Positions 240-15,878 of a stretch of DNA of 64,000 nucleotides are shown piece by piece. The notes below the pieces were generated by a model. That model ran no database searches. It was not told where the DNA came from and saw only the letters and a list, made by a program, of their open reading frames with translations. Every line of letters begins with the position of its first letter. The stretch's first letter is position 1. Origin of the DNA: a virus; the IMG/VR virus record IMGVR_UViG_3300033146_005170, positions 10,015 through 74,014 of that record, one strand, 5' to 3'. Both the position numbers and the translations under genes were made by a program.

Positions 240-2102
240 GTCTCCATGGGTAATGTATATGAGTTGATTTTCTTGAGCTTTTAAAATTTCCAAGAGTAAT
301 TTTTCTCTTGTACTATCAAAACTAGCAGCCACTTCATCTAAGATTAAAGTTCTAAAACTGCCAAGTCTAGATATTTGAGCTAAACTTAGTCTAAGAGCTA
401 GACTAATAGAGTCTTGTTCTGAACCACTAAAGTATTCAAAATCTTCAATACCATAGTCACTGTTTATTTTTACCTTTTCATATTTACCTTCTGAAAGGTA
501 ATTAACTATATTAGAAACATTTTTCTCTAATAGAGGTATAACATTTTGTCCAAAAGCTTTTCTATAATTATCTATAAACTTAAGAAAATTTTTAAGGCTA
601 TTATACTTAGTCTCTTGAAGCTTAAGTTTAAGTTCTAATCTTTCTGACTCTTTTTTTAGTCTTTTATAGGACTCGTGTGCTTCTTGAATTGCAGTTAGAT
701 GATTAGCCTCTCTCTTATAAGGCTCTATATCTATTTCTTCTGGAGCTTCTAAATTTTGAATTTTTTGCTTGATGTTTACTTGTTTTCTAATTTCTATAAT
801 ATTTTTTAAAGGCTTAGCTTCTAATAGAGCATTTGGAACTTTATTATTTAATTCTAAATATCTATTATAAGTATCTTTATATCTTAATGATATTAAGGCC
901 TCCTCTATTTCAAGTAAACTTAGAGAAGGCTTTGTTATGCTATTTAGCTCTTGAACCAATTCATAAGCTTTATTTCTAGCTAAAGCTGCTTGATATTTTT
1001 CTTGAGATATTTCCATACTCTTTTTAAATTGATCTATGCTTTTTGGAGGTTTCTTAGGCCAAGGCTGTTCACAAGTTGGACAAGTAGCTGGTACACTCTT
1101 CCAAGTATTATAGAGTCTTTTTGCAGTGACTGTATCTTCATAAAGAAGTTTTAAGTTATCTTCTTTTTTTGGCTCAACATTTAGTTTTTCTAACTCTTTT
1201 TTAATATTTTGTATATTTTTATGAGTTATCTTGAGATTCATTAAGTCTTCTATTTGCATTGTGAAATACTCTGGCAATACTTTTATATCTTTTAATTTTT
1301 TCCTTAAAGTTAATTTTTCATTGATTAGATCATTTGTAGCTTTGATTTGGCTATTGTAAGCTATCTTTTCTTCATGTTCTTTTTCCTCTTGCTCAAGATC
1401 ATAGTCAATGCCATGCCATTGTCTAATCAAAAGTCTATCTTTTTGATAAGCTTCTAGTTTAGTTTTATAAGCTCCATATTCTATTAGCTTATTTTCTAAT
1501 TTTGCTTTGGCTAATTTTAATTGCTCAGATACATCTTCTATAGGCTTACCTAGATTAATAGAGCTTAAAGAATTCTTAGTATCTTCTAATAAACCTATTT
1601 CAAGTCTTAGAGCTATTTTAACTTCATCTTTAATAGCATCTAACTTATCTATTCTAAGAATTTTCTCTACTCTTTTTGTTCGCTCTAAAGGAGACAAGGC
1701 AGCGAAACTTCCTATTTCTTTTTGACCTATAAAAAAAGAAGTTTTAAATAACTCAGGAGTTAAACCATAGTGTTCAGTAACCCATTCAGATATACCTGTT
1801 TTATTTCTAGCAAGGATATTTCCAGTACTAAGATCTGTAACTAAAGCTAATTTATTGGTTCTTTCTATAACAAAATTATCAAGGTATAGCTTTACTCCAC
1901 CATCAGTTTGACCTTTTCTAATCCAATCTCTAGCTTTACCTCTAGTCATGGCTGTACCAAATAGTGCAAAGCCTATAGCCTCTACAATAGTTGTTTTTCC
2001 TGTACCATTTCTGGCTTGGATTAAATTAAATCCAGGATCAAATTCAATTAACTTATAGTTAAAAAGTCTATAGTTAACAAGTTCAAGCTTTAATAAATTC
2101 AT
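231..2102 (-). CDS. sbcC: SbcC/Rad50-like SMC ATPase (recombination nuclease subunit)
   Basis: Walker A ARNGTGKTT, central coiled coil with zinc-hook CPTC, signature FSGSEQ, Walker B LILDE, H-loop ITH. Confidence 0.92.
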   Translation of the reverse strand: MNLLKLELVNYRLFNYKLIEFDPGFNLIQARNGTGKTTIVEAIGFALFGTAMTRGKARDWIRKGQTDGGVKLYLDNFVIERTNKLALVTDLSTGNILARNKTGISEWVTEHYGLTPELFKTSFFIGQKEIGSFAALSPLERTKRVEKILRIDKLDAIKDEVKIALRLEIGLLEDTKNSLSSINLGKPIEDVSEQLKLAKAKLENKLIEYGAYKTKLEAYQKDRLLIRQWHGIDYDLEQEEKEHEEKIAYNSQIKATNDLINEKLTLRKKLKDIKVLPEYFTMQIEDLMNLKITHKNIQNIKKELEKLNVEPKKEDNLKLLYEDTVTAKRLYNTWKSVPATCPTCEQPWPKKPPKSIDQFKKSMEISQEKYQAALARNKAYELVQELNSITKPSLSLLEIEEALISLRYKDTYNRYLELNNKVPNALLEAKPLKNIIEIRKQVNIKQKIQNLEAPEEIDIEPYKREANHLTAIQEAHESYKRLKKESERLELKLKLQETKYNSLKNFLKFIDNYRKAFGQNVIPLLEKNVSNIVNYLSEGKYEKVKINSDYGIEDFEYFSGSEQDSISLALRLSLAQISRLGSFRTLILDEVAASFDSTREKLLLEILKAQENQLIYITHGDLN

Positions 2103-2952
2103 CTATTAACTCCTCTGTAAAGCCCTCTTTTAGAGCTGCTTGTTTAAATGAAGCAATTATATCAATATTGATATCTTTTTCTTCAAGTTTTAAATCTTTA
2201 ATAGTAACATCTTTAGAAGTCTTTACATAATAGCAATGGCCTTCTAAAAGATTAATAGGCTCTTCATAAAGTAAATGAACTTTATCAGCTTGAGGTACCT
2301 CTTTTAGGGTATTATTAATAACATAATAACGTTTGCCTATTTGATTTATAGCTTGAGGTACAACACTGCCTAGATGAACAAAATTTTTAGATATTGAGGC
2401 AGAGTGTTCGTGGCCAGAATAGATTATAATATCTTTTGCAGCTGCTAAGTTATAAAGTTCATCTGTAAAGCTATTGTCATTGTCATTATCCCAGTATTTT
2501 CTATTGCAGTGGGCTATAATAGTTCCCTTCTCTGGAGTTTTATGAATACATTCTTTCATAGCCTCTAAAAAGAGCTGTTGTGTATCTTGCCAAGCTACTA
2601 TAGAAAAATTTTCTCCTATATAGCTTTGATTTGCTTTAATTAGAAATATGTACTCTAAAATTTCAAGTCTAGAAAAGGCAGTGTCTTTTTTTAACATTGG
2701 AATATCATGATTTCCTGCAACTATATAAACTAAAGGCACACGAGTTGTAACTGAAATTAACTTCATTAAATCTAAAGCCGTCGGTTCTGAACTATCAAAA
2801 ACGTCACCGGCGAGTATTAGTTCTGTAGGATCTTCTTTTTGAAGTAATTCTTCCAGTATTTTTAGAGCTGCGTTATCCCAGATAGTAGGATCTCCATAAG
2901 TAGTTCTATGTTTTTTTCCTATATGAAGATCCCCAATTATCATTGTTTTCAT
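2083..2952 (-). CDS. sbcD: SbcD/Mre11-like metallophosphoesterase nuclease
   Basis: GDLH, GDVFD, GNHD, GHEH motifs; adjacent to sbcC; start moved to ATG at 2952 (ATGA overlap with upstream small ORF). Confidence 0.9.
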   Translation of the reverse strand: MKTMIIGDLHIGKKHRTTYGDPTIWDNAALKILEELLQKEDPTELILAGDVFDSSEPTALDLMKLISVTTRVPLVYIVAGNHDIPMLKKDTAFSRLEILEYIFLIKANQSYIGENFSIVAWQDTQQLFLEAMKECIHKTPEKGTIIAHCNRKYWDNDNDNSFTDELYNLAAAKDIIIYSGHEHSASISKNFVHLGSVVPQAINQIGKRYYVINNTLKEVPQADKVHLLYEEPINLLEGHCYYVKTSKDVTIKDLKLEEKDINIDIIASFKQAALKEGFTEELIDEFIKA

Positions 2953-3044
2953 TTTATGTCCCTTCTGAACCAAATAAATTGTAAAATGGCATTAAAGATA
3001 CTTGCTAGAGCGCCTAGTACTAAAAATGAGTAGACTACTGTCAT
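2949..3044 (-). CDS. 31-aa single-TM peptide (MTVVYSFLVLGALASIFNAILQFIWFRRDIK), not in ORF track
   Basis: Read manually; ATGA overlaps at both ends couple it to both neighbours. Confidence 0.65.
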   Translation of the reverse strand: MTVVYSFLVLGALASIFNAILQFIWFRRDIK

Positions 3045-3496
3045 ACTTGCCACCATTTATATTCTTTACATTGTTTATAAAACTGAAGTTCTTCCCAACG
3101 CCAGCTAGCTTTTTTACTTTTTGCTTTAGCTAAAACTTCACTAAAAGGTACAAAATAAAATTCATTAGTAGGAATTCTATGAATAATAAATATAGATTTT
3201 GCACCTGCAAAAGACCATCTTTGAGCATGTCCAATTTGTTTACTAGAAATATTTTTTAATGGAAATCTAGCTACATCATTTGAAGATTTAATTTCTACAA
3301 GATAAGTTTGTCCATTATAGATCGCTAAGCGATCTGAAGGCTGATTAGTAACCAAATTTCTAGCTGCATGGGTATCTATAAATTTATAAAAGACAAATGA
3401 CTTTGTCAATGCCATTTCTTCTTTGTATAAGTTATCAAAGATTTTCTCAGTGTCTTTACCATCGTTTCTCATAGATTTCCTCCTGATAGATCCCAT
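3041..3496 (-). CDS. RecU-like Holliday junction resolvase (PD-(D/E)XK)
   Basis: PSD...LVEIKSS nuclease core, FPLKNISSKQI motif typical of RecU; real start may be the MRND Met. Confidence 0.8.
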   Translation of the reverse strand: MGSIRRKSMRNDGKDTEKIFDNLYKEEMALTKSFVFYKFIDTHAARNLVTNQPSDRLAIYNGQTYLVEIKSSNDVARFPLKNISSKQIGHAQRWSFAGAKSIFIIHRIPTNEFYFVPFSEVLAKAKSKKASWRWEELQFYKQCKEYKWWQV

Positions 3497-3857
3497 TAAA
3501 ATGAATTACAGTGATAAGAGCATAGCCCCTAAAGAACTTTTCTGGTAACTTTACACCCTCAATGTCAAAATAAGTTCTATGAATTATTAAAATTTCAGGT
3601 CTAAATTGCATCAAAGATTTAACCCCTCCAAAATGAATATCTGTAGTTCTTTTTGGATAGATAAAATGCCAAGCTTTTGGAAGAGCTATAAGCTGTTTAT
3701 AGTTCTTAATAGTCTCCCAAGTACGCTTACCTACAAATACATTTTGATCTTTAATAAGATTTCTTAGCCATTTTTTATCTTCAGGAGGTCCCCAAGCAAC
3801 GCTACCATCATAACTAGCATAGCAGTTATTTTTTGATAAAAGTAATACTCCAAGCAT
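3456..3857 (-). CDS. Divergent dihydrofolate reductase
   Basis: W-GPPEDKKWL and VFVGKRTWETI (cf. MGRKTWESI), GG motif; nucleotide-metabolism cluster. Confidence 0.78.
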   Translation of the reverse strand: MLGVLLLSKNNCYASYDGSVAWGPPEDKKWLRNLIKDQNVFVGKRTWETIKNYKQLIALPKAWHFIYPKRTTDIHFGGVKSLMQFRPEILIIHRTYFDIEGVKLPEKFFRGYALITVIHFNGIYQEEIYEKRW

Positions 3858-3860
3858 CTG

Positions 3861-4028
3861 TTAATCCTCAAAGATAAATACTACTGGTATAATTAAGGTT
3901 ACAGTCAAAATAGCAAAGAAAAATCTTATAAAGCCTACACCTTCTAAATCCATTTTATCATAGTGAGCAGTTAGAAAAGCACCAGTAAGTAATAGTCCTA
4001 CCGCTAAATAGCCAATAACAAATATCAT
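3861..4028 (-). CDS. 55-aa two-TM membrane protein, not in ORF track
   Basis: MIFVIGYLAVGLLLTGAFLTAHYDKMDLEGVGFIRFFFAILTVTLIIPVVFIFED; ATGA overlap with upstream gene. Confidence 0.65.
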   Translation of the reverse strand: MIFVIGYLAVGLLLTGAFLTAHYDKMDLEGVGFIRFFFAILTVTLIIPVVFIFED

Positions 4029-4333
4029 TTTTTATTCCTTTTAGGTAAATTTATGTGATATTTCACAGTTAAGTAGTAACAAATATCATCATATTGTTGC
4101 TGCTGCTCTGTAGTTAATTTTTTTCTTATATAATAAACTTTCCAGAGCTCTACTACTTGATCTTTAGTCTTAGTTTCCAAGAGATCTATAGTTTTAGATT
4201 TTCTAGTGACAGTTCCTAATTTTCTTCTTGTAGTTTTAAAATTGAAAGAAATAGGTTTTGTCTTCTTTTCTTTTTCTTTTCTCTCTTTTCTTATGGCTTT
4301 CATAGTAAAGCCTACTTTGAGTCCTTCTAGCAT
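4025..4333 (-). CDS. Basic hypothetical protein
   Basis: ORF track; abuts neighbours in the operon. Confidence 0.6.
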   Translation of the reverse strand: MLEGLKVGFTMKAIRKERKEKEKKTKPISFNFKTTRRKLGTVTRKSKTIDLLETKTKDQVVELWKVYYIRKKLTTEQQQQYDDICYYLTVKYHINLPKRNKK

Positions 4334-4726
4334 CTAAAATTCCTTTACTTCTACGAGATCTCCTAAAGAAATTAGACTAGACCAATTTTCTTCAAGATCT
4401 ATTTCCTGACGAAAAGCTTTAAATAGAGTAACTCGATCTATCTTTTCTGTGATATTATATTTTTTAGTAAGATAGCTAGCTATCAAGGCTCCATTAAAAA
4501 TTTTTAAATTACTAGTTATGAGTAAATTAAGCTCTCCTTTCCTATAAGATTCAAAAGCATACTTACCGTAATGATCATAGCCTTCGCTCTTTTCATAGCC
4601 ATCACTTAGCAATTTATCATTAGTTTCTTGTAAATCACTAACTAAAGCTATTATATCATCATCCGTATTTAAAATAGGTGGATTAAGTAAATTTCGACTA
4701 CCAGATTTAAAAGCTTTTATAAACAT
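4334..4726 (-). CDS. Putative small nucleotidyltransferase-fold phage protein
   Basis: GSR...PP..NTDDD (GS...DxD) signature near the N-terminus. Confidence 0.5.
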   Translation of the reverse strand: MFIKAFKSGSRNLLNPPILNTDDDIIALVSDLQETNDKLLSDGYEKSEGYDHYGKYAFESYRKGELNLLITSNLKIFNGALIASYLTKKYNITEKIDRVTLFKAFRQEIDLEENWSSLISLGDLVEVKEF

Positions 4727-5121
4727 TGCTCTACCTCCATATATTGTGAGAGGTATTCTAGTACCTCTTCATATTCTTCTTTCACTGCTCCATATACCAA
4801 TTTTGCTGGCTTATGGCCAATAATATTCTTTGCACATTCCCAGCAAGGAGCTAAAGTAACATAAAAAGTTGAACCTTTTGTTTGTCTAACTGATACTTGG
4901 CGAATAGCATTCATTTCAGCATGATGAACTCGCCAGTGCTCAGTATTTCCATCCTCATCCTCACATCTATTGCTATCGCCTTCGATAGTGCCATTTACGC
5001 CCATAGAAATAAGTCTTTTATCTTTAACTATTAGACAAGCTACTTGAGCTTTTTTACAAGAAGATTGTGTAGCAGCGAGTTCTGCAAAAGTTATCCAAAA
5101 ATCATCTCCCCATCTACTCAT
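4717..5121 (-). CDS. dCMP deaminase
   Basis: HAEMNA and PCWEC zinc motifs, MGVNG. Confidence 0.92.
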   Translation of the reverse strand: MSRWGDDFWITFAELAATQSSCKKAQVACLIVKDKRLISMGVNGTIEGDSNRCEDEDGNTEHWRVHHAEMNAIRQVSVRQTKGSTFYVTLAPCWECAKNIIGHKPAKLVYGAVKEEYEEVLEYLSQYMEVEQCL

Positions 5122-5945
5122 GTTACAACCTTCACTCTAAAAATAGCCTCTGGTTTAACTTTGTATTCAGGAACTTTTATACTATCAATAAAATCATCCT
5201 TGTCTTTTCTAACTTTTTTAATAGTCCATTCAGGGTCTATTTCTACTCTATAAGTACTAGGCTTAGCAGACCTTTTCATATACTCAACAACTGCATCATA
5301 TTGGTTTTCATAAACATGAAGATGGGCTATAGAATAAAAAAGTTCTCCTACACCTACTTTTAAAGTATTAGCTAAAAGGTTACTTAAAATAGTGTACATC
5401 ATAATATCATAAGGTAAGCCTAAATAGGCATCATTACTTCGCAAAGTTAAATGGCAATTAAGCTGGCCTTCTATGATATTAAATACAGCTGTATAAGGAC
5501 AAGGTACATTTTTATGTTGAAATACTAAGTCTGATGGATGCCAAGACATTAAAACTTGTTGTCTTGATGAAGGATCTCTACTTAGATTTAGTAAAATCTG
5601 ATTAATCTGATTAAAACCATAAGCTGTAGCCCATCTATAACCATAAGCTCCTTTAACTATACCTGGAGAGTCTTCAAAAGCTTTCCAAATACTAGTGTAT
5701 CTATTAATCCATTCAGTTTCTTGAGTTCCAGATAAAAACCAAGTAACCTCAGCAGCTCCAGTTCTAGGATACATTTTTCTAATGTTTGACAATGGCCAAT
5801 AGTTCATATTCCATCTAAAAGCATAACCATGTGCAGCTGTTATGCTTGAATTAGTTCTTTGGTTTTTTTGAACCTTTCCATGTTTGCTAAGATACCTAAA
5901 TACCTTTCTATGAAGATAGTCAAAATTATTTTCCAGCTGAAACAT
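5118..5945 (-). CDS. Thymidylate synthase-superfamily enzyme with dCMP-type active site (putative dCMP methylase/hydroxymethylase)
   Basis: Catalytic PC, RSND, LHVY; LGLPYD instead of canonical LGLPFN. Confidence 0.85.
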   Translation of the reverse strand: MFQLENNFDYLHRKVFRYLSKHGKVQKNQRTNSSITAAHGYAFRWNMNYWPLSNIRKMYPRTGAAEVTWFLSGTQETEWINRYTSIWKAFEDSPGIVKGAYGYRWATAYGFNQINQILLNLSRDPSSRQQVLMSWHPSDLVFQHKNVPCPYTAVFNIIEGQLNCHLTLRSNDAYLGLPYDIMMYTILSNLLANTLKVGVGELFYSIAHLHVYENQYDAVVEYMKRSAKPSTYRVEIDPEWTIKKVRKDKDDFIDSIKVPEYKVKPEAIFRVKVVT

Positions 5946-7845
5946 CTAAAGCCCTTTCTATATTTTTAGGAGAAAAATCTCCTTTAAGTTCAATTTGATC
6001 TGCAAAATTAATACCTATACTAGCTTCAGCTATTAGTGGTACTGAAAAGCCTCTAGGAGTTCTTTCCATTATTTCAACTGCTTGTTTTATAAGCTCTGAA
6101 GCTTTTTCTTTCTTACAAGACCATACAAATTCATCGTGTACAGGAGCAATAAATTTATAATCTTCGTGAAATAAAAGATTTGATTCATCTAGAGATAGCA
6201 TACTAAGTTTCATAAGCTCACCAGCTGAGCCTTGAATAGTAAAATTTAGACCTTGATTTTCTGCTGATTTTGCTAGAGCTTTTATAGGACTGGCTATATC
6301 TGGTAAACGTCTTCTTCTACCAAAGATAGTAAGAACATATTTATTAGTCTTTAAAAAAGCCATAATCTTATTTACATAGTCATAAAAATAGCCTTTATAA
6401 CCTAGTTTATGTGCAGCTAGAAAATTTTCAGCCTCAGCTTCACTACAGTTTAGTAAATCAAATTTACTTAATCTAGCAGCTCCAGCTAAATAAAGAGCAG
6501 CGAAGTTTAGAGTTTTACCCTTTTGACGATTAGCTTTCTGCTCTTTATCACCTTTGTTTATTAGCTCTTTCATTTTATCATAGTCTAAACCACTAATATT
6601 GGTTCCAGATAAAGTGTGCATATCTTTTTTGGTACGATAACCATCTATTAACTTAGGATCTTGAGAAACATGAGCAGCTATACGCATTTCTATCTGTGAC
6701 CAGTCAATAGAAACAATACAGTCGTGATTAAATTTTGAAAAAGGTACTATTACTTTTCTTACTTTAACACCCTCACCTCTTTTACTTAATTGTTGAAGAT
6801 TTGGTGCTTGCATAGAAAATCGACCTGTCACTGTACCTGTTTGTCTAATTTGTGAATGAATTTTACCATCAGGGTATATTAACTTTGGATAAGGCTTATA
6901 ATAAAGCTTAAGTCTAGTTTCAACTTTTCTAATTTCACTAAAAGCCTTAATGACCTTATGAGTTTCGCCATATTTAGCTTCAAGTTCAAATAGTGACTCT
7001 TTATCTGTACTAGGAACACCAGTCTTTTTAGACACTTTATGTGGCTGTAGACCTAAATCTTTAAATAAAAATTTAGAGACTTGAGCTGGACTATTAAGAT
7101 TAATATTAGCCAATTCAGGAAATTCATCCAATAACCTATTCTTAATCTCAATATCTTCAGCTTGAATTTTATCAAGCATGGCTAAATCAACTTGTTGGCC
7201 TTGGCGATAGTGCTTAGCAACAATTTTGATTAAATCCATTTCAAATAATCTATAATAATCCATATTAACATAGTCTAGATAAAATTTATAAAGCTTTAAA
7301 GTCCAAATAGTATCAGACATACCATAATCAAAACCTTCTTCTGCAGTTATGTCTTTCATAGTTCCATTGCCAACGGTTTCAGCATATGAAGGCATAACAT
7401 GACCAAAAAGCCTTTTTACACTAGGTTTTAAACCTTGGGCATTATTTTCATTTGCTAAGACTCCCATAATCATGGTATCAAGAAGTTCTCCTTTAAAGTC
7501 ATAGCCATGGTTTAAAAAAATGCCATATTCAAAAGCCAAGTTATGTCCTACCATTTGTTTACAATCTTTTAAGATCTTAGGTAAATAGTCATAACTTAAT
7601 CTTAAGTCTTCTCCCTCTTGTTTATGATTAAAATCAAAATAAAATTCTAAGCCATCTTCTAAGTACAGCTGTAGAGATACCATTTTAGACTCTAGTTGAT
7701 TAAGAGGTCTTTGTTTAGGCGAAAGATCCATAAACCAAGCATTTTCATAAGGATTATAGGTCTCTATATCAACAGAGTAAAGAGTCTCTTTAGAATTCTC
7801 CAAGGCTTTTAAAGCCTCATTAATATTTGTTTTATTTATAATCAT
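5926..7845 (-). CDS. polA: Family A DNA polymerase with 3'-5' exonuclease
   Basis: DIET exo I, GHN exo II, TGRFS..PNLQQ, motif A DWSQIEMR, motif B KTLNFAALY, motif C VHDE. Confidence 0.96.
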   Translation of the reverse strand: MIINKTNINEALKALENSKETLYSVDIETYNPYENAWFMDLSPKQRPLNQLESKMVSLQLYLEDGLEFYFDFNHKQEGEDLRLSYDYLPKILKDCKQMVGHNLAFEYGIFLNHGYDFKGELLDTMIMGVLANENNAQGLKPSVKRLFGHVMPSYAETVGNGTMKDITAEEGFDYGMSDTIWTLKLYKFYLDYVNMDYYRLFEMDLIKIVAKHYRQGQQVDLAMLDKIQAEDIEIKNRLLDEFPELANINLNSPAQVSKFLFKDLGLQPHKVSKKTGVPSTDKESLFELEAKYGETHKVIKAFSEIRKVETRLKLYYKPYPKLIYPDGKIHSQIRQTGTVTGRFSMQAPNLQQLSKRGEGVKVRKVIVPFSKFNHDCIVSIDWSQIEMRIAAHVSQDPKLIDGYRTKKDMHTLSGTNISGLDYDKMKELINKGDKEQKANRQKGKTLNFAALYLAGAARLSKFDLLNCSEAEAENFLAAHKLGYKGYFYDYVNKIMAFLKTNKYVLTIFGRRRRLPDIASPIKALAKSAENQGLNFTIQGSAGELMKLSMLSLDESNLLFHEDYKFIAPVHDEFVWSCKKEKASELIKQAVEIMERTPRGFSVPLIAEASIGINFADQIELKGDFSPKNIERALDVSAGK

Positions 7846-8576
7846 AGCATTATTCCTTTTCTACCGCAGTAAGCTATAATATCTTTTTTAGCTCCTATAC
7901 AGGTATCTATTTCTTTAGGCTCTATAGGCGTTGCTAGCTTCCAAGACATACAGGCTTGTTCAGTCATCATTTTAGGATCATAATCACAATTTCCAATTGA
8001 AAAATGGTGATTGTACAGCTCTCTATCACTAAAAGTTAGCTTATTCCAAGCTGCTTTTCCAAAGCCTTTTTTACCTGGAATTTTATCTGAAGGATCTCCA
8101 ACTAAAGTTTTATATAGATCAATATGTCCTGGTATGCAATTGAATTTAACTCCCACAAGTTCTCTAGTTACTTTAGTGGTGGCATTTAAAAGAATTTCTA
8201 CTTCTTTATTTATTAAAGGCCAAAGATCTTTGTCATTAGAGATAACTATATCTCCTTTTTTGGCATTTAGTCTTAGATAATCATCTGCTTCAGCATCATT
8301 TATATAAAGAACTTTATTTTTAGTGTAGCAAAGGGCCATACCAATACAGTTCTTTAAAACCTCAAAATAAACTGGATCTTCACCCATATTACGCCCTTTT
8401 TTATAGTCAGCAAAAATTTCTCTTCTAGCTTTTCTAGAAGTTGGGGTATCACTAACTAAAGTCATAGGCTCGTGTTTACGTTTTAAAAGAAGATCATACA
8501 TAAGTTGATAAGGATTACCTCCTCCATGATAGATTCTTTTAATGTAATTATTTAGATCAATATAAATCATCACCAT
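7842..8576 (-). CDS. 5'-3' exonuclease / flap endonuclease
   Basis: YKKGR, EADD, SNDKD, GDPSDKIPG..GFGK motifs. Confidence 0.9.
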   Translation of the reverse strand: MVMIYIDLNNYIKRIYHGGGNPYQLMYDLLLKRKHEPMTLVSDTPTSRKARREIFADYKKGRNMGEDPVYFEVLKNCIGMALCYTKNKVLYINDAEADDYLRLNAKKGDIVISNDKDLWPLINKEVEILLNATTKVTRELVGVKFNCIPGHIDLYKTLVGDPSDKIPGKKGFGKAAWNKLTFSDRELYNHHFSIGNCDYDPKMMTEQACMSWKLATPIEPKEIDTCIGAKKDIIAYCGRKGIML

Positions 8577-8847
8577 TCTCCGCTAAATAGGCTTCTATAT
8601 AATCGATATAGTCTTGCCATACTTCTAAATTATTTTTTGGCGTACGAGGATCTACAGTTTCTATCTTATGATAAAAATACTCTAGTAACGTTTCCAAATC
8701 ATAAAGATTAGCAAGACCACCTTTAGAAGTAACTACAGAGCCAACAACTGCATCTTGACACTTATGCAATTGTTGTCTAACGCTACTTCTACTTTTACCA
8801 TTTCGTAGTACTATAAAGTCTACTAATGAATTACTTAATGTTGCCAT
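8557..8847 (-). CDS. Hypothetical protein (possible DNA-binding)
   Basis: ORF track; overlaps neighbours. Confidence 0.55.
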   Translation of the reverse strand: MATLSNSLVDFIVLRNGKSRSSVRQQLHKCQDAVVGSVVTSKGGLANLYDLETLLEYFYHKIETVDPRTPKNNLEVWQDYIDYIEAYLAENGDDLY

Positions 8848-9326
8848 TTTAAATCCAACATAGTAATTTTAATCTCTGGCATATTTGCTTTTACAAAACC
8901 AAGAGCGTCATGATAGGCTTCTCTAATTTGATCATATCCATAAGCTTCAAAAGGATCATTTTTATCATACTCTTCAAAAGGAGTATTAGTAAGATAGATA
9001 ATTTCATCTATCTCTGGTTTAACAATACTTTTATAAAGATTAAGAATAATCAAAGGTGGCATATTACCTAGTAAATAGCCTTGATAAACGAGCATGCTAA
9101 GCATACCTCTATCAGCAATCAACTGTATAGGATTTTTTCTCCAGTCTTGCCAAAACTGCATTTCATTGGCAAAGAATAAAAAAGTAGCTGCTGTACCTTC
9201 TATATTAGACTTAAGTAATAAGTCTCTAAAAACCCCATTTGGTAAATGTAATTTTTCTAAATTAGAGTTATTAACAAGAGTGGTTTTGCCACATTTATCT
9301 GGGCCTTCTACTAAAATTATTCCCAC
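8835..9326 (-). CDS. Thymidylate/dNMP kinase
   Basis: P-loop EGPDKCGKTT and DR..LS..VYQ motif. Confidence 0.85.
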   Translation of the reverse strand: MGIILVEGPDKCGKTTLVNNSNLEKLHLPNGVFRDLLLKSNIEGTAATFLFFANEMQFWQDWRKNPIQLIADRGMLSMLVYQGYLLGNMPPLIILNLYKSIVKPEIDEIIYLTNTPFEEYDKNDPFEAYGYDQIREAYHDALGFVKANMPEIKITMLDLKWQH

Positions 9327-9513
9327 GAATTTCTCCTTGATAGGTTATACAGTCTAGTGCTAGCAATATGAAAGGATTTTTAGAGCACTTAGAACTAAGT
9401 GCTCCTTTTCTTATTTTTTCAAGCTTATTATAAGTTTGAGAAAAAAGACCTTGTCTATGTCTATAAACAGCAACGGCTGCTTCTACAGCTGAATATGCCA
9501 TTGCCATTACCAT
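9295..9513 (-). CDS. Hypothetical protein
   Basis: ORF track; fills operon gap. Confidence 0.5.
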   Translation of the reverse strand: MVMAMAYSAVEAAVAVYRHRQGLFSQTYNKLEKIRKGALSSKCSKNPFILLALDCITYQGEIRGNNFSRRPR

Positions 9514-9674
9514 TCTCTTAGAATTTCATCAACTTCATCAGCACTTGTAGCTACAGAGAGTAGATCATGAGCAGCTTCAAGGCCATTAATAAGACCAGGT
9601 CCCCAAGTTGGATTTTCTCTTTCAATATAATCAAATAGAGCTTCCAAAATTTCAATGCAAGTTATATTATCCAT
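9507..9674 (-). CDS. Hypothetical protein
   Basis: ORF track; start moved to MDNIT. Confidence 0.55.
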   Translation of the reverse strand: MDNITCIEILEALFDYIERENPTWGPGLINGLEAAHDLLSVATSADEVDEILREW

Positions 9675-9813
9675 TTTTAATCCTTTTAGCATTAGCTTTA
9701 CGTCTGGCTTTTTCTTTACGCCTATTTTTCAACTTTCTTGTTCTAATCGATGGCCTAGTAAATACTGAGCCATCTGGTCTTTCTCTTCTACCTTTACCTT
9801 CTAGTTTTTTCAT
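9667..9813 (-). CDS. 48-aa very basic protein, not in ORF track
   Basis: MKKLEGKGRRERPDGSVFTRPSIRTRKLKNRRKEKARRKANAKRIKNG; ATGA overlap with upstream gene. Confidence 0.65.
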   Translation of the reverse strand: MKKLEGKGRRERPDGSVFTRPSIRTRKLKNRRKEKARRKANAKRIKNG

Positions 9814-10457
9814 ACTATACCTACTTTTTCAAAAGTTGCTTTAGAGTATCTAAAACCTTGTTTTGAAACAGTTCTTTCTACACCAATTTTAGTGATAATT
9901 TCCGTCATCTTATAGCCTTCTTTAGTCAGCTCTTTAATATAATCTGCAAAGGCAAATTTAGATGCTGGAGACAAAGAAATTTTTGTAAGCTTTTCGCCTT
10001 CATCAGCATAATCCCACTGAAAATAAATTTCATACCTAGCCTGAATTTTCATTTTTTCTGGCTCACCTGCTTTTGCTTTTTCTTCCATCAATAGCTCTTG
10101 CATTGATCGACCTGCAGTGTCAGTATGACCATCAAAACTTTCAGCAACTAGATTAGAACTTTCATCCCAAAGCTGCCATACAGGCTTGCCTCCTTCAATT
10201 ACTACTTCAATTGATGGATGAACACTATTGTCTGTTTTGTTAAGAAGTTCAGACCCATCAAGAATGAAGTAAGGCATAAAAGATGCAATTGTATCCAAAC
10301 CTTCGAACTCGGGATTTGCAGCTTGCATAGCTGAGCTTGAAGTAGCTGCTACTGGTGTAGCTGCATTTCCTGTAACCATTACTTCTGTAGCTGGTTGTTC
10401 ACTAACTTTTGTCTCTTCTGTTGCATTTACATCCAACTCTCTAATATCTCTAGCCAT
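9810..10457 (-). CDS. Putative single-stranded DNA-binding protein
   Basis: Acidic, beta-rich 215-aa protein heading the polymerase operon with its own promoter and SD; assignment mainly from context. Confidence 0.45.
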   Translation of the reverse strand: MARDIRELDVNATEETKVSEQPATEVMVTGNAATPVAATSSSAMQAANPEFEGLDTIASFMPYFILDGSELLNKTDNSVHPSIEVVIEGGKPVWQLWDESSNLVAESFDGHTDTAGRSMQELLMEEKAKAGEPEKMKIQARYEIYFQWDYADEGEKLTKISLSPASKFAFADYIKELTKEGYKMTEIITKIGVERTVSKQGFRYSKATFEKVGIV

Positions 10458-10523
10458 AACTAATCCTTAAAATAAATTTGTAGTGAAGTTCGAAAACTTC
10501 TCTATCAATTTATTTATAATAAT

Positions 10524-10554
10524 ATTATATCATAAGATTTATTATGAGTAACAC
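10524..10554 (-). promoter_or_regulatory. Promoter GTGTTAC-N18-TATAAT (TG extended -10)
   Basis: Member of the six-copy promoter family; upstream of the SSB/PolA operon. Confidence 0.7.
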
Positions 10555-10558
10555 AAAC

Positions 10559-11128
10559 TTAAATCTTTGCCATTAAATTAAATTTTAAGGCTATGACTAA
10601 TTTTTCTTTTGGACTAAGTTTTTTAAGTCCTCTTATAACAAAGTCAAAATTATCTTCTTGTTCTACTATTTCTAAAGTATCTTCTGTATTATGATCAATA
10701 TGATCTAGCTCAGTAAGCCCACACTTATCAGTTTGAAGTTCTAAAACTTGAATTATTAAATGTTTATTCATTCCTAACTCTTTAGCAATTAAATTAGCAT
10801 CAGGGATAAAATCATGAATTTTTGCAAAGTCTTCAATAAATTTGTAAACTTTAAATCTATTATAGACAATATGACTTGGCAGTTTTAATACTCTAGATCT
10901 AGAGGTAAGAGCATATGTAATAGCTTGTTTTATCCAAAAGCCTGCATAAGTAGAGAACTTAGTACCATAAGAAGGATCATAATGCTCTATAGCATTTAGT
11001 AAGCCAATACTACCTTCTTGAATAAGATCTTGAAAGTCTAAGCCTTTACTTGTTTTTCGATATTTATTAGCTATTATTTTCACTAAATATAAGTAATCTT
11101 CTACTAGGTCATTTATAAATGGGTCCAC
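10559..11128 (-). CDS. Phage sigma70-family factor (regions 2-3 and 4.1, lacking the region 4.2 HTH)
   Basis: DLIQEGSIGLLNAIEHYDP..GTKFSTYAGFWIKQAI = RpoD region 2; ends LSPKEKLVIALKFNLMAKI*. Confidence 0.9.
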   Translation of the reverse strand: MDPFINDLVEDYLYLVKIIANKYRKTSKGLDFQDLIQEGSIGLLNAIEHYDPSYGTKFSTYAGFWIKQAITYALTSRSRVLKLPSHIVYNRFKVYKFIEDFAKIHDFIPDANLIAKELGMNKHLIIQVLELQTDKCGLTELDHIDHNTEDTLEIVEQEDNFDFVIRGLKKLSPKEKLVIALKFNLMAKI

Positions 11129-15305: not shown

Positions 15306-15878
15306 TTATAAAGGTAGACGACTAGTTTGTACCTTTAGATATGTATCTTCTAAATAGTTATAAGTTTCTTCAAAAGTCCAAGCTTTATCTAGACAGTGTA
15401 CTAAAAAAGCATTATCTTCAATAGGCTGGAGATTAGTACCCCAGTTTTTAAAGTATTCTCCTTGCTTATAGCCATAATCTTGACGAAGTTTATTTAAAGC
15501 TTGTTTACCAAGAATATAATTAACAACTGCCGGATTTTGATTAACTATTAACCTAATAGCTTGATTATATTGATCTGTAGTAAAGGTGTAGGTTAGCTTT
15601 CTAAGAAAAAGGTAATCAGACTCTGCTGGTGCAAGCTCTATAATCGGCTTAAGAGGTTGCTTTTTGTAATAGGCAACATTAATTATAAAGATAACTATAT
15701 CTGCCATTTCAATTAGGATATTTAACTCGTCTCTGTCTACTTTTTTCCAGTCAGCATAACCTAAACTAGCAGTTAGTTCTCCAATTTCTTCTAAACCTGC
15801 AAGCCACATTACTTCAGCATTAGAGTCCATAGTCTTTTGCCAAGCAAATTGTCTTGTGATTATATCTGAAATATTCAT
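15306..15878 (-). CDS. dut: Dimeric all-alpha dUTPase (possible dCTPase)
   Basis: EEIGE, WK, EMAD, and K..LN.LRQ..GYK.G.Y.K.W...EDN as recalled for the Campylobacter dimeric dUTPase. Confidence 0.85.
   Translation of the reverse strand: MNISDIITRQFAWQKTMDSNAEVMWLAGLEEIGELTASLGYADWKKVDRDELNILIEMADIVIFIINVAYYKKQPLKPIIELAPAESDYLFLRKLTYTFTTDQYNQAIRLIVNQNPAVVNYILGKQALNKLRQDYGYKQGEYFKNWGTNLQPIEDNAFLVHCLDKAWTFEETYNYLEDTYLKVQTSRLPL

Follow-up and report, generated by a model that had tools for sequence, protein, structure and literature searches.

What does a phage do with a thymidylate synthase (TS) homologue that appears adapted to deoxycytidylate (dCMP), when that gene is the only member of its family in the genome? 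The question is raised by IMG/VR record IMGVR_UViG_3300033146_005170, a 74,014-bp viral genome with a G+C content of 32%, which has direct terminal repeats and which IMG/VR rates as 100% complete. We analysed bases 10015-74014 of this record (64,000 nucleotides, hereafter the window, to which all coordinates refer). A first-pass annotation, made from the letters without database searches, had picked out a TS homologue, a dCMP deaminase and a dihydrofolate reductase (DHFR) at 3456-5945 and offered two alternatives: either the virion DNA carries 5-methylcytosine (5mC) or 5-hydroxymethylcytosine, or the phage makes thymidylate (dTMP) from dCMP by way of 5-methyl-dCMP. On the evidence of homology and gene context set out below, we consider it likely that this region encodes a pyrimidine-remodelling module like that of Xanthomonas phage Xp12, specifying a 5mC genome together with thymidine derived from 5-methyldeoxycytidine (5-methyl-dC) nucleotides. 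The features central to this argument are the following.

5118-5945, minus strand: ThyA-family open reading frame (ORF) of 275 amino acids (aa), predicted deoxycytidylate C5-methyltransferase (PF00303 4e-48, alignment, clade, approximately unbiased (AU) test, C-terminal tail)
5406-5408, minus strand: GAT codon, giving Asp in place of E. coli ThyA Asn177, the pyrimidine-specificity residue (read directly and by alignment)
4717-5121, minus strand: dCMP-deaminase-family zinc deaminase, 134 aa (PF00383 3e-20, phrog_174 8e-32; HAE and PCxxC)
3456-3857, minus strand: truncated DHFR-fold protein, 133 aa (family profile, AlphaFold model, Foldseek)

The TS homologue matches PF00303 over the full domain, with 164 bits against a cut-off of 24.3 and coverage of profile positions 6-264 out of 266. 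Read on the minus strand, the ORF gives NVPCPYTA...LRSNDAYLGLPYDIM...AHLHVY, and alignment with E. coli ThyA sets an Asp on N177 and a Pro on H147. The PCPY...RSND...LHVY motifs, the GAT codon and the loss of the His that follows the catalytic Cys are thus as first described. The catalytic residues of ThyA are otherwise kept (R21, E58, W80, Y94, R126, C146, R166, S167, D169, H207 and Y209), and among the phosphate-, folate- and proton-relay residues checked, the sole change is R127 to Q. In E. coli numbering the signature is therefore F83, Q127, C146, P147, D177, H207 and Y209. Replacement of N177 by Asp turns ThyA from deoxyuridylate (dUMP) to dCMP, according to the work cited in PMC8670742 (Hardy & Nalivaika 1992; Liu & Santi 1992), and viral contigs with and without modification can be told apart by positions 147 and 177 (PMC8670742). 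In the whole genome of 74,014 bp there is one PF00303 match and no match to ThyX (PF02511), which bears out the earlier statement that this is the only TS-family gene and that canonical thyA and thyX are missing.

The combination F83-P147-D177 is common to all 120 nearest relatives in a collection of 5.8 billion sequences. Nearly all of these are metagenomic, the best is 58% identical and one is a protein labelled as Patescibacteria. The same three residues are found in the TS of phages Xp12 (Xanthomonas), PaMx28 and ZQG1 (Pseudomonas), RcSimone-Hastad (Rhodobacter) and Axy16 (Achromobacter), and a search of 50,697 phage records gave these five as its best TS matches, 30-33% identical to the window TS. 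The corresponding residues are V83-T147-D177 in the dCMP hydroxymethylase of T4, gp42, and W83-H147-N177 in the canonical TS of Bacillus phage QCM8; E. coli ThyA likewise has H147 and N177. A CMP-specific role, like that of MilA, was considered for the window gene and set aside, given its position inside a putative DNA-replication operon and the use of dCMP by its nearest characterised relative.

Some relatives are of interest in their own right. The two closest (P0002 and P0003, 57-58% identity) are proteins of 432-434 aa with an HNH_3 domain (PF13392), which suggests that an element of the homing-endonuclease type was inserted into the TS gene or fused to it; nothing of the kind is present in the window gene. 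Eight loci on cellular-looking contigs of 86-490 kb (L119, L120, L126, L134, L135, L139, L149 and L157) encode an F83-P147-D177 TS with His127; many of them have a deaminase and DHFR close by and lack PRA-PH, the pyrophosphatase of the Xp12 module.

A phylogeny against ThyA and T4 gp42 had been proposed in the first-pass annotation as a check on its assignment. In a tree of 47 sequences rooted on canonical enzymes (IQ-TREE, LG+C20+F+G4), the P147/D177 sequences formed one clade, with support of 96/89, that held the enzymes of both Xp12 and the window. Its sister clade (100/99) comprised the T147/D177 group, which includes gp42, and the N147/N177 group. A 129-row FastTree gave the same picture, and both Asp177 and Pro147 were invariant in all 77 rows of the P147/D177 clade in the tree alignment. 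Constraining the window TS into the sister clade, a group that was named only after the first tree had been seen, cost 30 log-likelihood units (AU test, p=0.011). The window TS also lay outside the ThyA outgroup branch, and the TS of QCM8 lay outside the P147/D177 clade. By sequence, then, the window TS belongs to the Xp12-type clade and not to the gp42-type hydroxymethylases.

Two further features bear on the choice between methylation and hydroxymethylation. The C-terminus of ThyA closes over the folate for hydride transfer. In the P147/D177 clade this tail has the length of ThyA and ends, as in ThyA, in a hydrophobic V-V or V-I motif, while the tail of gp42 is cut short and those of other hydroxymethylase-type enzymes are unrelated; the ThyA-like tail would thus favour reductive methylation. 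The second feature is the linkage to DHFR, which the first-pass annotation had already taken to argue for methylation and which can now be put as a count. Among IMG/VR loci, a DHFR gene is present at most 8 kb from the TS gene in 28 of 37 P147/D177 loci, against 0 of 29 T147/D177 and 0 of 18 N147/N177 loci (0/47 for hydroxymethylase types; Fisher p ~1e-14), a contrast tempered by the relatedness of the loci and by their selection with search patterns that favoured Asp-type enzymes. In metagenome contigs, many of them too short to tell, DHFR was present in 40 of 76 loci with F83-P147-D177. A deaminase gene stands directly 3' of TS in most P147/D177 loci, including those of the nearest relatives (L012, L092-L095 and L100). 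Experimentally, co-expression with T4 gp1 yielded 5-methyl-dC in vivo for the TS of Xp12 and for five out of seven deaminase-linked homologues from metagenomes (bioRxiv 10.1101/2024.12.05.627091). Membership of the Xp12 clade, linkage to DHFR and the ThyA-like tail together favour reductive methylation, and the window TS probably makes 5-methyl-dCMP. The earlier preference for a true dCMP methylase over a hydroxymethylase is strengthened in consequence, with the phylogeny, AU test, signature, tail and DHFR co-occurrence all pointing the same way.

The assignment of the 133-aa ORF at 3456-3857 needed more than a single-sequence search. Alone, the ORF matched PF00186 at E=0.0027, with 17.9 bits against a cut-off of 25 and over residues 9-54 only, and gave PDB sequence matches at E 0.014-1 that were nearly all DHFRs, aligned in register. 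A word-based protein search returned no relative besides the query, whereas full phmmer against 1.84 billion representatives yielded 16 relatives of 130-160 aa (P0122-P0137). Invariant in the alignment of this family are D27, G43, T46, G77 and G78, the equivalents of D27, G43, T46, G95 and G96 in E. coli DHFR, and the listed PDB matches to its profile were all DHFRs (two of them engineered DHFR fusions), full length, with a best value of 2.6e-7. An alignment-based AlphaFold model (pLDDT 94.8, pTM 0.87) replaced a single-sequence model of pLDDT 35.7, and its Foldseek matches were again all DHFRs (TM 0.70, E 6e-9). The modelled product is a DHFR-fold protein, truncated and divergent. The label given to it at first thus stands for the fold and catalytic residues but not for a complete DHFR.

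Compared with FolA (PF00186), which it resembles in fold and in the residues listed above, the protein has 133 aa in place of about 159, a shorter F-G loop and a single-sequence score below the Pfam cut-off. The main loss is of some 23 residues between strands C and E, roughly E. coli 65-89, which removes strand D and helix E of the adenosine-binding subdomain from the window protein and from about half of the family. Family members accordingly fall into a short class of 130-138 aa and a long one of 145-160 aa, and the syntenic relatives L012 and L092 carry full-length DHFR-like versions of 155-157 aa. Its conservation among members that have diverged makes it probable that the short form is functional, and on the modelled structure such forms may represent a minimal natural DHFR. 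Similarity to the DHFRs of Xp12-type phages is slight: tblastn of the ORF against Xp12-type loci gave no match, and the Xp12-type DHFR profile matched the window weakly (E=0.0019).

The TS, deaminase and DHFR-like genes lie within a run of minus-strand genes, in the order 5'-3' exonuclease, family A DNA polymerase (PolA), TS homologue, deaminase, three small ORFs, DHFR-like, RecU-like and SbcD-like, with adjacent genes abutting or overlapping. An ATGA at 5118-5121 joins the TS stop to the deaminase start, the overlap noted in the first-pass annotation, and the DHFR-fold ORF follows 1.26 kb downstream on the same strand, past the three small ORFs. On the basis of this same-strand packing we propose that the run forms one operon; a promoter and terminator scan of 1900-10700 found fewer promoter-like sites than in shuffled sequence. 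The syntenic relatives L012 and L092 retain the order PolA, TS, deaminase, DHFR-like, RecU and SbcD. The other genes of the run, and two possible helper genes outside it, are given here.

7842-8576, minus strand: 5'-3' exonuclease
5926-7845, minus strand: family A DNA polymerase (PolA), matching DNA polymerase I genes of phages in tblastn; its last 20 nt are shared with the beginning of the TS ORF
4334-4726, minus strand: small ORF of 130 aa (phrog_15166, of unknown function, 1e-20; no Pfam match)
4025-4333, minus strand: basic ORF of 102 aa (no Pfam or PHROGs match; in L100 a homologue with 50% identity comes after the deaminase)
3861-4028, minus strand: hydrophobic ORF of 55 aa, probably with two membrane helices, from its translation (no Pfam or PHROGs match)
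3041-3496, minus strand: RecU-like Holliday-junction resolvase, sharing 41 nt with the end of the DHFR-like gene
2083-2973, minus strand: SbcD-like phosphoesterase/nuclease, the next gene after the RecU-like one
8835-9326, minus strand: thymidylate-kinase-family P-loop kinase, 163 aa (phrog_761 7e-10; PF02223 1.5e-5, below cut-off)
15306-15878, minus strand: dimeric-dUTPase-family all-alpha NTP pyrophosphatase, 190 aa (PDB 1W2Y 2.4e-6, 1OGK 3.5e-6; PF08761 7e-4; phrog_173 8.5e-5)

Both helper assignments agree with the earlier annotation of a deoxynucleoside monophosphate (dNMP) kinase and a dimeric dUTPase/dCTPase at these positions. The kinase ORF gave no meaningful PDB sequence match but contains a P-loop (VEGPDKCGKTT) and a DR...YQG motif, and it is a reasonable candidate, by family, for a 5-methyl-dCMP/dTMP kinase. 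The all-alpha NTP pyrophosphatase superfamily includes dimeric dUTPase, PRA-PH, MazG and T4 gp56, and the product of 15306-15878 is a candidate dUTPase and/or dCTPase from its sequence matches.

These components suggest the following pathway, in which we infer all substrates and products, and the state of the virion DNA, from the gene content. The ThyA homologue would take dCMP, not dUMP, with methylene-tetrahydrofolate and, by one-carbon transfer and reduction, release 5-methyl-dCMP and dihydrofolate; the downstream DHFR-fold protein would recycle the latter to tetrahydrofolate. The phage thymidylate-kinase-like enzyme and host NDP kinase would carry 5-methyl-dCMP to the triphosphate, and phage PolA would insert 5-methyl-dCTP, with 5mC replacing cytosine wholly or largely in virion DNA. 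The coupled deaminase would convert part of the 5-methyl-dC nucleotide pool, as mono- or triphosphate, to thymidine nucleotides, supplying T without a dUMP-dependent TS, and the enzyme of the dimeric-dUTPase family may serve to remove dUTP, dCTP or both. Beyond the methylase step, our confidence falls. That the virion DNA carries mostly 5mC seems to us only slightly better supported than the opposite, and whether the deaminase acts on 5-methyl-dC nucleotides we regard as evenly balanced; its substrate may be 5-methyl-dCMP, 5-methyl-dCTP or simply dCMP.

A pathway of this kind has precedent. In Xp12 and in the Bosavirus/Pamexvirus phages PaMx28, PaMx74, AXL1 and ZQG1, the module consists of PRA-PH, a TS homologue, a dCMP-family deaminase and DHFR, and the cassette of DHFR, deaminase, TS and pyrophosphatase has been described for Pamexvirus and Bosavirus, whose DNA resists restriction enzymes with G/C in their sites (PMC9206674). 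In Xp12 and PaMx74, 5mC fully replaces cytosine, and in Xp12 labelled cytosine enters both 5mC and T (bioRxiv 10.1101/2024.12.05.627091). The two options that the first-pass annotation had set against each other, DNA modification and a dUMP-independent route to dTMP, are therefore better seen as two halves of one known pathway: in characterised phages of the Xp12 type they occur together. Nor is the system new, as had been implied, for positions 147 and 177 were treated in PMC8670742 and the pairing of TS and deaminase in bioRxiv 10.1101/2024.12.05.627091; the kind of module is already described.

The window shares with the Xp12 type the TS clade, the F83-P147-D177 signature, a sole TS-family gene and its placement on the same strand as the replication genes. 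With Xp12, PaMx28, ZQG1 and RcSimone-Hastad it also shares the order TS, deaminase, DHFR and the overlap of the TS stop with the deaminase start. It differs in that its TS is only about 30-33% identical, falls in a separate deep subclade and has Q in place of R at 127; in its deaminase, which is of another subfamily; in the three small ORFs between deaminase and DHFR; and in a DHFR that is truncated, from a divergent family and without BLAST similarity to those of the Xp12 type. PRA-PH precedes TS in Xp12, ZQG1, RcSimone-Hastad and most Xp12-like loci, although it is rare in metagenome loci (2/76). Upstream of the window TS its place is taken by PolA, and a dimeric-dUTPase-family gene lies 9 kb away. 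Base composition differs too, at 32% G+C in the window genome against 67.3% in the Xp12 relative AXL1 (PMC9206674). The metagenomic deaminases linked to TS (bioRxiv 10.1101/2024.12.05.627091; PMC8670742) offer a second comparison: there too a PF00383 deaminase lies within 3 kb of an N177D TS homologue, and DNA_pol_A is a frequent neighbour, just as PolA directly precedes the window TS. The T4 system (gp42, gp1, gp56, Cd, Td and Frd) has Asp177 in common with the window TS and makes helper roles for the dNMP kinase and the all-alpha NTP pyrophosphatase plausible; its hydroxymethylase differs in clade, in T147 against P147 and in its short tail. T4 has in addition a separate canonical TS (td), which the window phage lacks, and a beta-glucosyltransferase, no counterpart of which appeared in general ORF scans of the window, although no search was aimed at glycosyltransferases. 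From canonical ThyA (E. coli; QCM8), with which it shares fold, catalytic residues and tail length, the window TS is set apart by N177D, H147P, W83F and R127Q.

Several observations weigh against an Xp12-like pathway. The window TS sits in a deep subclade of metagenomic sequences (9 rows, 100/99), apart from the Xp12 subclade and with no characterised member placed in it. More seriously, the deaminase is not of the Xp12/mSCD-B5 subfamily and resembles classical dCMP deaminases by sequence. It matched the dCMP deaminases of Streptococcus mutans and cyanophage S-TIM5 at about 1e-13; by PDB entry, its matches were 2HVV (5e-14), 4P9C (1e-13), T4 Cd (1VQ2, 4e-10) and, weakly, the PBCV-1 enzyme (7FH4, 1e-4). 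The Xp12 deaminase matched human dCMP deaminase (5e-14) and the bifunctional dCMP/dCTP deaminase of PBCV-1 (7FH4, 3e-12). In a poorly resolved tree, the deaminases of the window and L012 fell across the main split (Shimodaira-Hasegawa-like approximate likelihood ratio test, SH-aLRT, 94), on the side where those from gp42-type loci predominate. The characterised metagenomic enzyme mSCD-B5, which selectively deaminates 5-methyl-dCTP to dTTP and strictly needs triphosphates, is structurally closest to the PBCV-1 enzyme, and preference for 5mC has been called sporadic within the deaminase family (bioRxiv 10.1101/2024.12.05.627091). The dCMP deaminase named in the first-pass annotation is thus correct as to family, but PDB matches and tree place it outside the 5mC-selective subfamily, and a preference for 5mC may therefore not carry over. 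In the DHFR-fold protein, part of the adenosine-binding subdomain is missing, so that its DHFR activity is putative. PRA-PH/MazG pyrophosphatases (PF01503, PF03819) had no match in the genome, nor did an Xp12-type PRA-PH profile in the window. Finally, CATG is depleted over the whole window (1-64000), with 79 sites observed where a maximal-order Markov model predicts 147 (z=-6.6); the remaining 4-bp palindromes show nothing approaching this depletion, and GATC and GTAC are slightly over-represented. Such avoidance points to selection by a host restriction system specific for CATG, and it speaks against a 5mC genome in that it would be needless if 5mC protected these sites from the host enzyme concerned. 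Palindrome statistics test DNA protection only indirectly, however, and this result is ambiguous.

Some of these observations would be expected if the phage used only the second half of the pathway, deaminating all of its 5-methyl-dCMP to dTMP and keeping ordinary cytosine in its virion DNA. A cytosine-first route confined to thymidylate would sit well with the lack of a match to a dCTP-clearing PRA-PH or MazG-type enzyme, with a 32% G+C genome and its high demand for T, and with continued selection on cytosine-containing sites such as CATG. The set of TS, deaminase and DHFR is also found on cellular-looking contigs of 180-490 kb, besides the Patescibacteria-labelled protein, and full genome methylation is less expected there. 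Yet in the characterised phages with this type of TS, Xp12 and PaMx74, replacement of C is complete (bioRxiv 10.1101/2024.12.05.627091), the kinase and the dUTPase-family NTPase of the window phage could fill the roles of T4 gp1 and gp56, and no sequence feature bars incorporation of 5-methyl-dCTP. We judge the restricted route unlikely, though with an appreciable chance of being right.

The two remaining explanations concern the chemistry of the TS homologue itself and carry far less weight. It could be a dCMP hydroxymethylase like T4 gp42, with DNA containing 5-hydroxymethylcytosine or a derivative; the Asp at position 177 is common to both enzymes, and hydride transfer cannot be proved by sequence alone. 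We think this very unlikely, as the window TS lies outside the gp42-type clade and resists forced placement there, has P147 rather than T147 and the ThyA-like tail that gp42 lacks, and belongs to a type that DHFR accompanies, as it never does the gp42 type among the loci examined. Pfam models for TET/JBP, as for C5 DNA methyltransferases, had no match in the complete genome, and Pfam and PHROGs scans of 28 ORFs found no glycosyltransferase, although none was aimed at that family. The 5-hydroxymethylcytosine option of the first-pass annotation is accordingly improbable for the virion DNA. Alternatively, an ordinary or dual-specificity TS might act on dUMP supplied by the dCMP deaminase, with DHFR recycling the folate as in T4 td/frd. 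TS, dCMP deaminase and DHFR do make up the classical gene set for dTMP as well, the deaminase looks classical and all other catalytic residues of ThyA are retained. Against this, the Asp and Pro are invariant across 77 clade rows and 120 nearest relatives, N177D is reported to switch ThyA from dUMP to dCMP (as cited in PMC8670742), and characterised clade members make 5-methyl-dC (bioRxiv 10.1101/2024.12.05.627091); a canonical phage TS, that of QCM8, keeps W83-H147-N177 and falls outside the clade. We rate an ordinary TS as marginally less probable again than a hydroxymethylase.

If the Xp12-like reading is right, a low-G+C lineage of uncultured phages joins the viruses expected to replace cytosine with 5mC and to derive thymidine from methylated cytosine nucleotides. 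What sets this locus apart is that its deaminase is of another subfamily, that its DHFR is truncated and divergent, that it has a dUTPase-family enzyme instead of PRA-PH, and that it belongs to a low-G+C lineage with no relatives in culture: a megablast of 3000-8000 against the 50,697 phage records gave no match, and no close cultured relative is among them. Because the linkage of an Asp-type TS, a deaminase and DHFR persists although the deaminase and DHFR are not of the Xp12 subfamilies, the case for mutual dependence of the three activities gains strength. A bolder suggestion, which from the sequence evidence we hold to be decidedly doubtful, is that the module was assembled independently from non-orthologous parts, namely a classical ComEB/T4-Cd-like deaminase, a dimeric-dUTPase-family NTPase for PRA-PH and a new minimal DHFR class of about 130 aa, which would function despite lacking strand D and helix E and might use its cofactor differently. 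Were that so, convergence would account for the repeated linkage of Asp-type TS, deaminase and DHFR, and among natural enzymes of the FolA fold the mini-DHFR would be the smallest. In practical terms, the locus offers compact enzyme candidates, the deaminase for 5mC-selective deamination in methylation sequencing and the 133-aa DHFR as a minimal scaffold, and it adds one more case in which the annotation 'thymidylate synthase' is probably wrong.

The remainder of the genome adds a few details. No tRNA genes were found. Nucleotide-pool genes differ between the window and its 96-kb syntenic relative L012, where a 127-aa PF18909 gene (dATP/dGTP diphosphohydrolase N-terminal, MazG-like; L012:4988-5371) lies between the sigma-factor block and the exonuclease; at the same slot, the window holds the thymidylate-kinase-like gene (8835-9326) and a 96-aa ORF (8557-8847).

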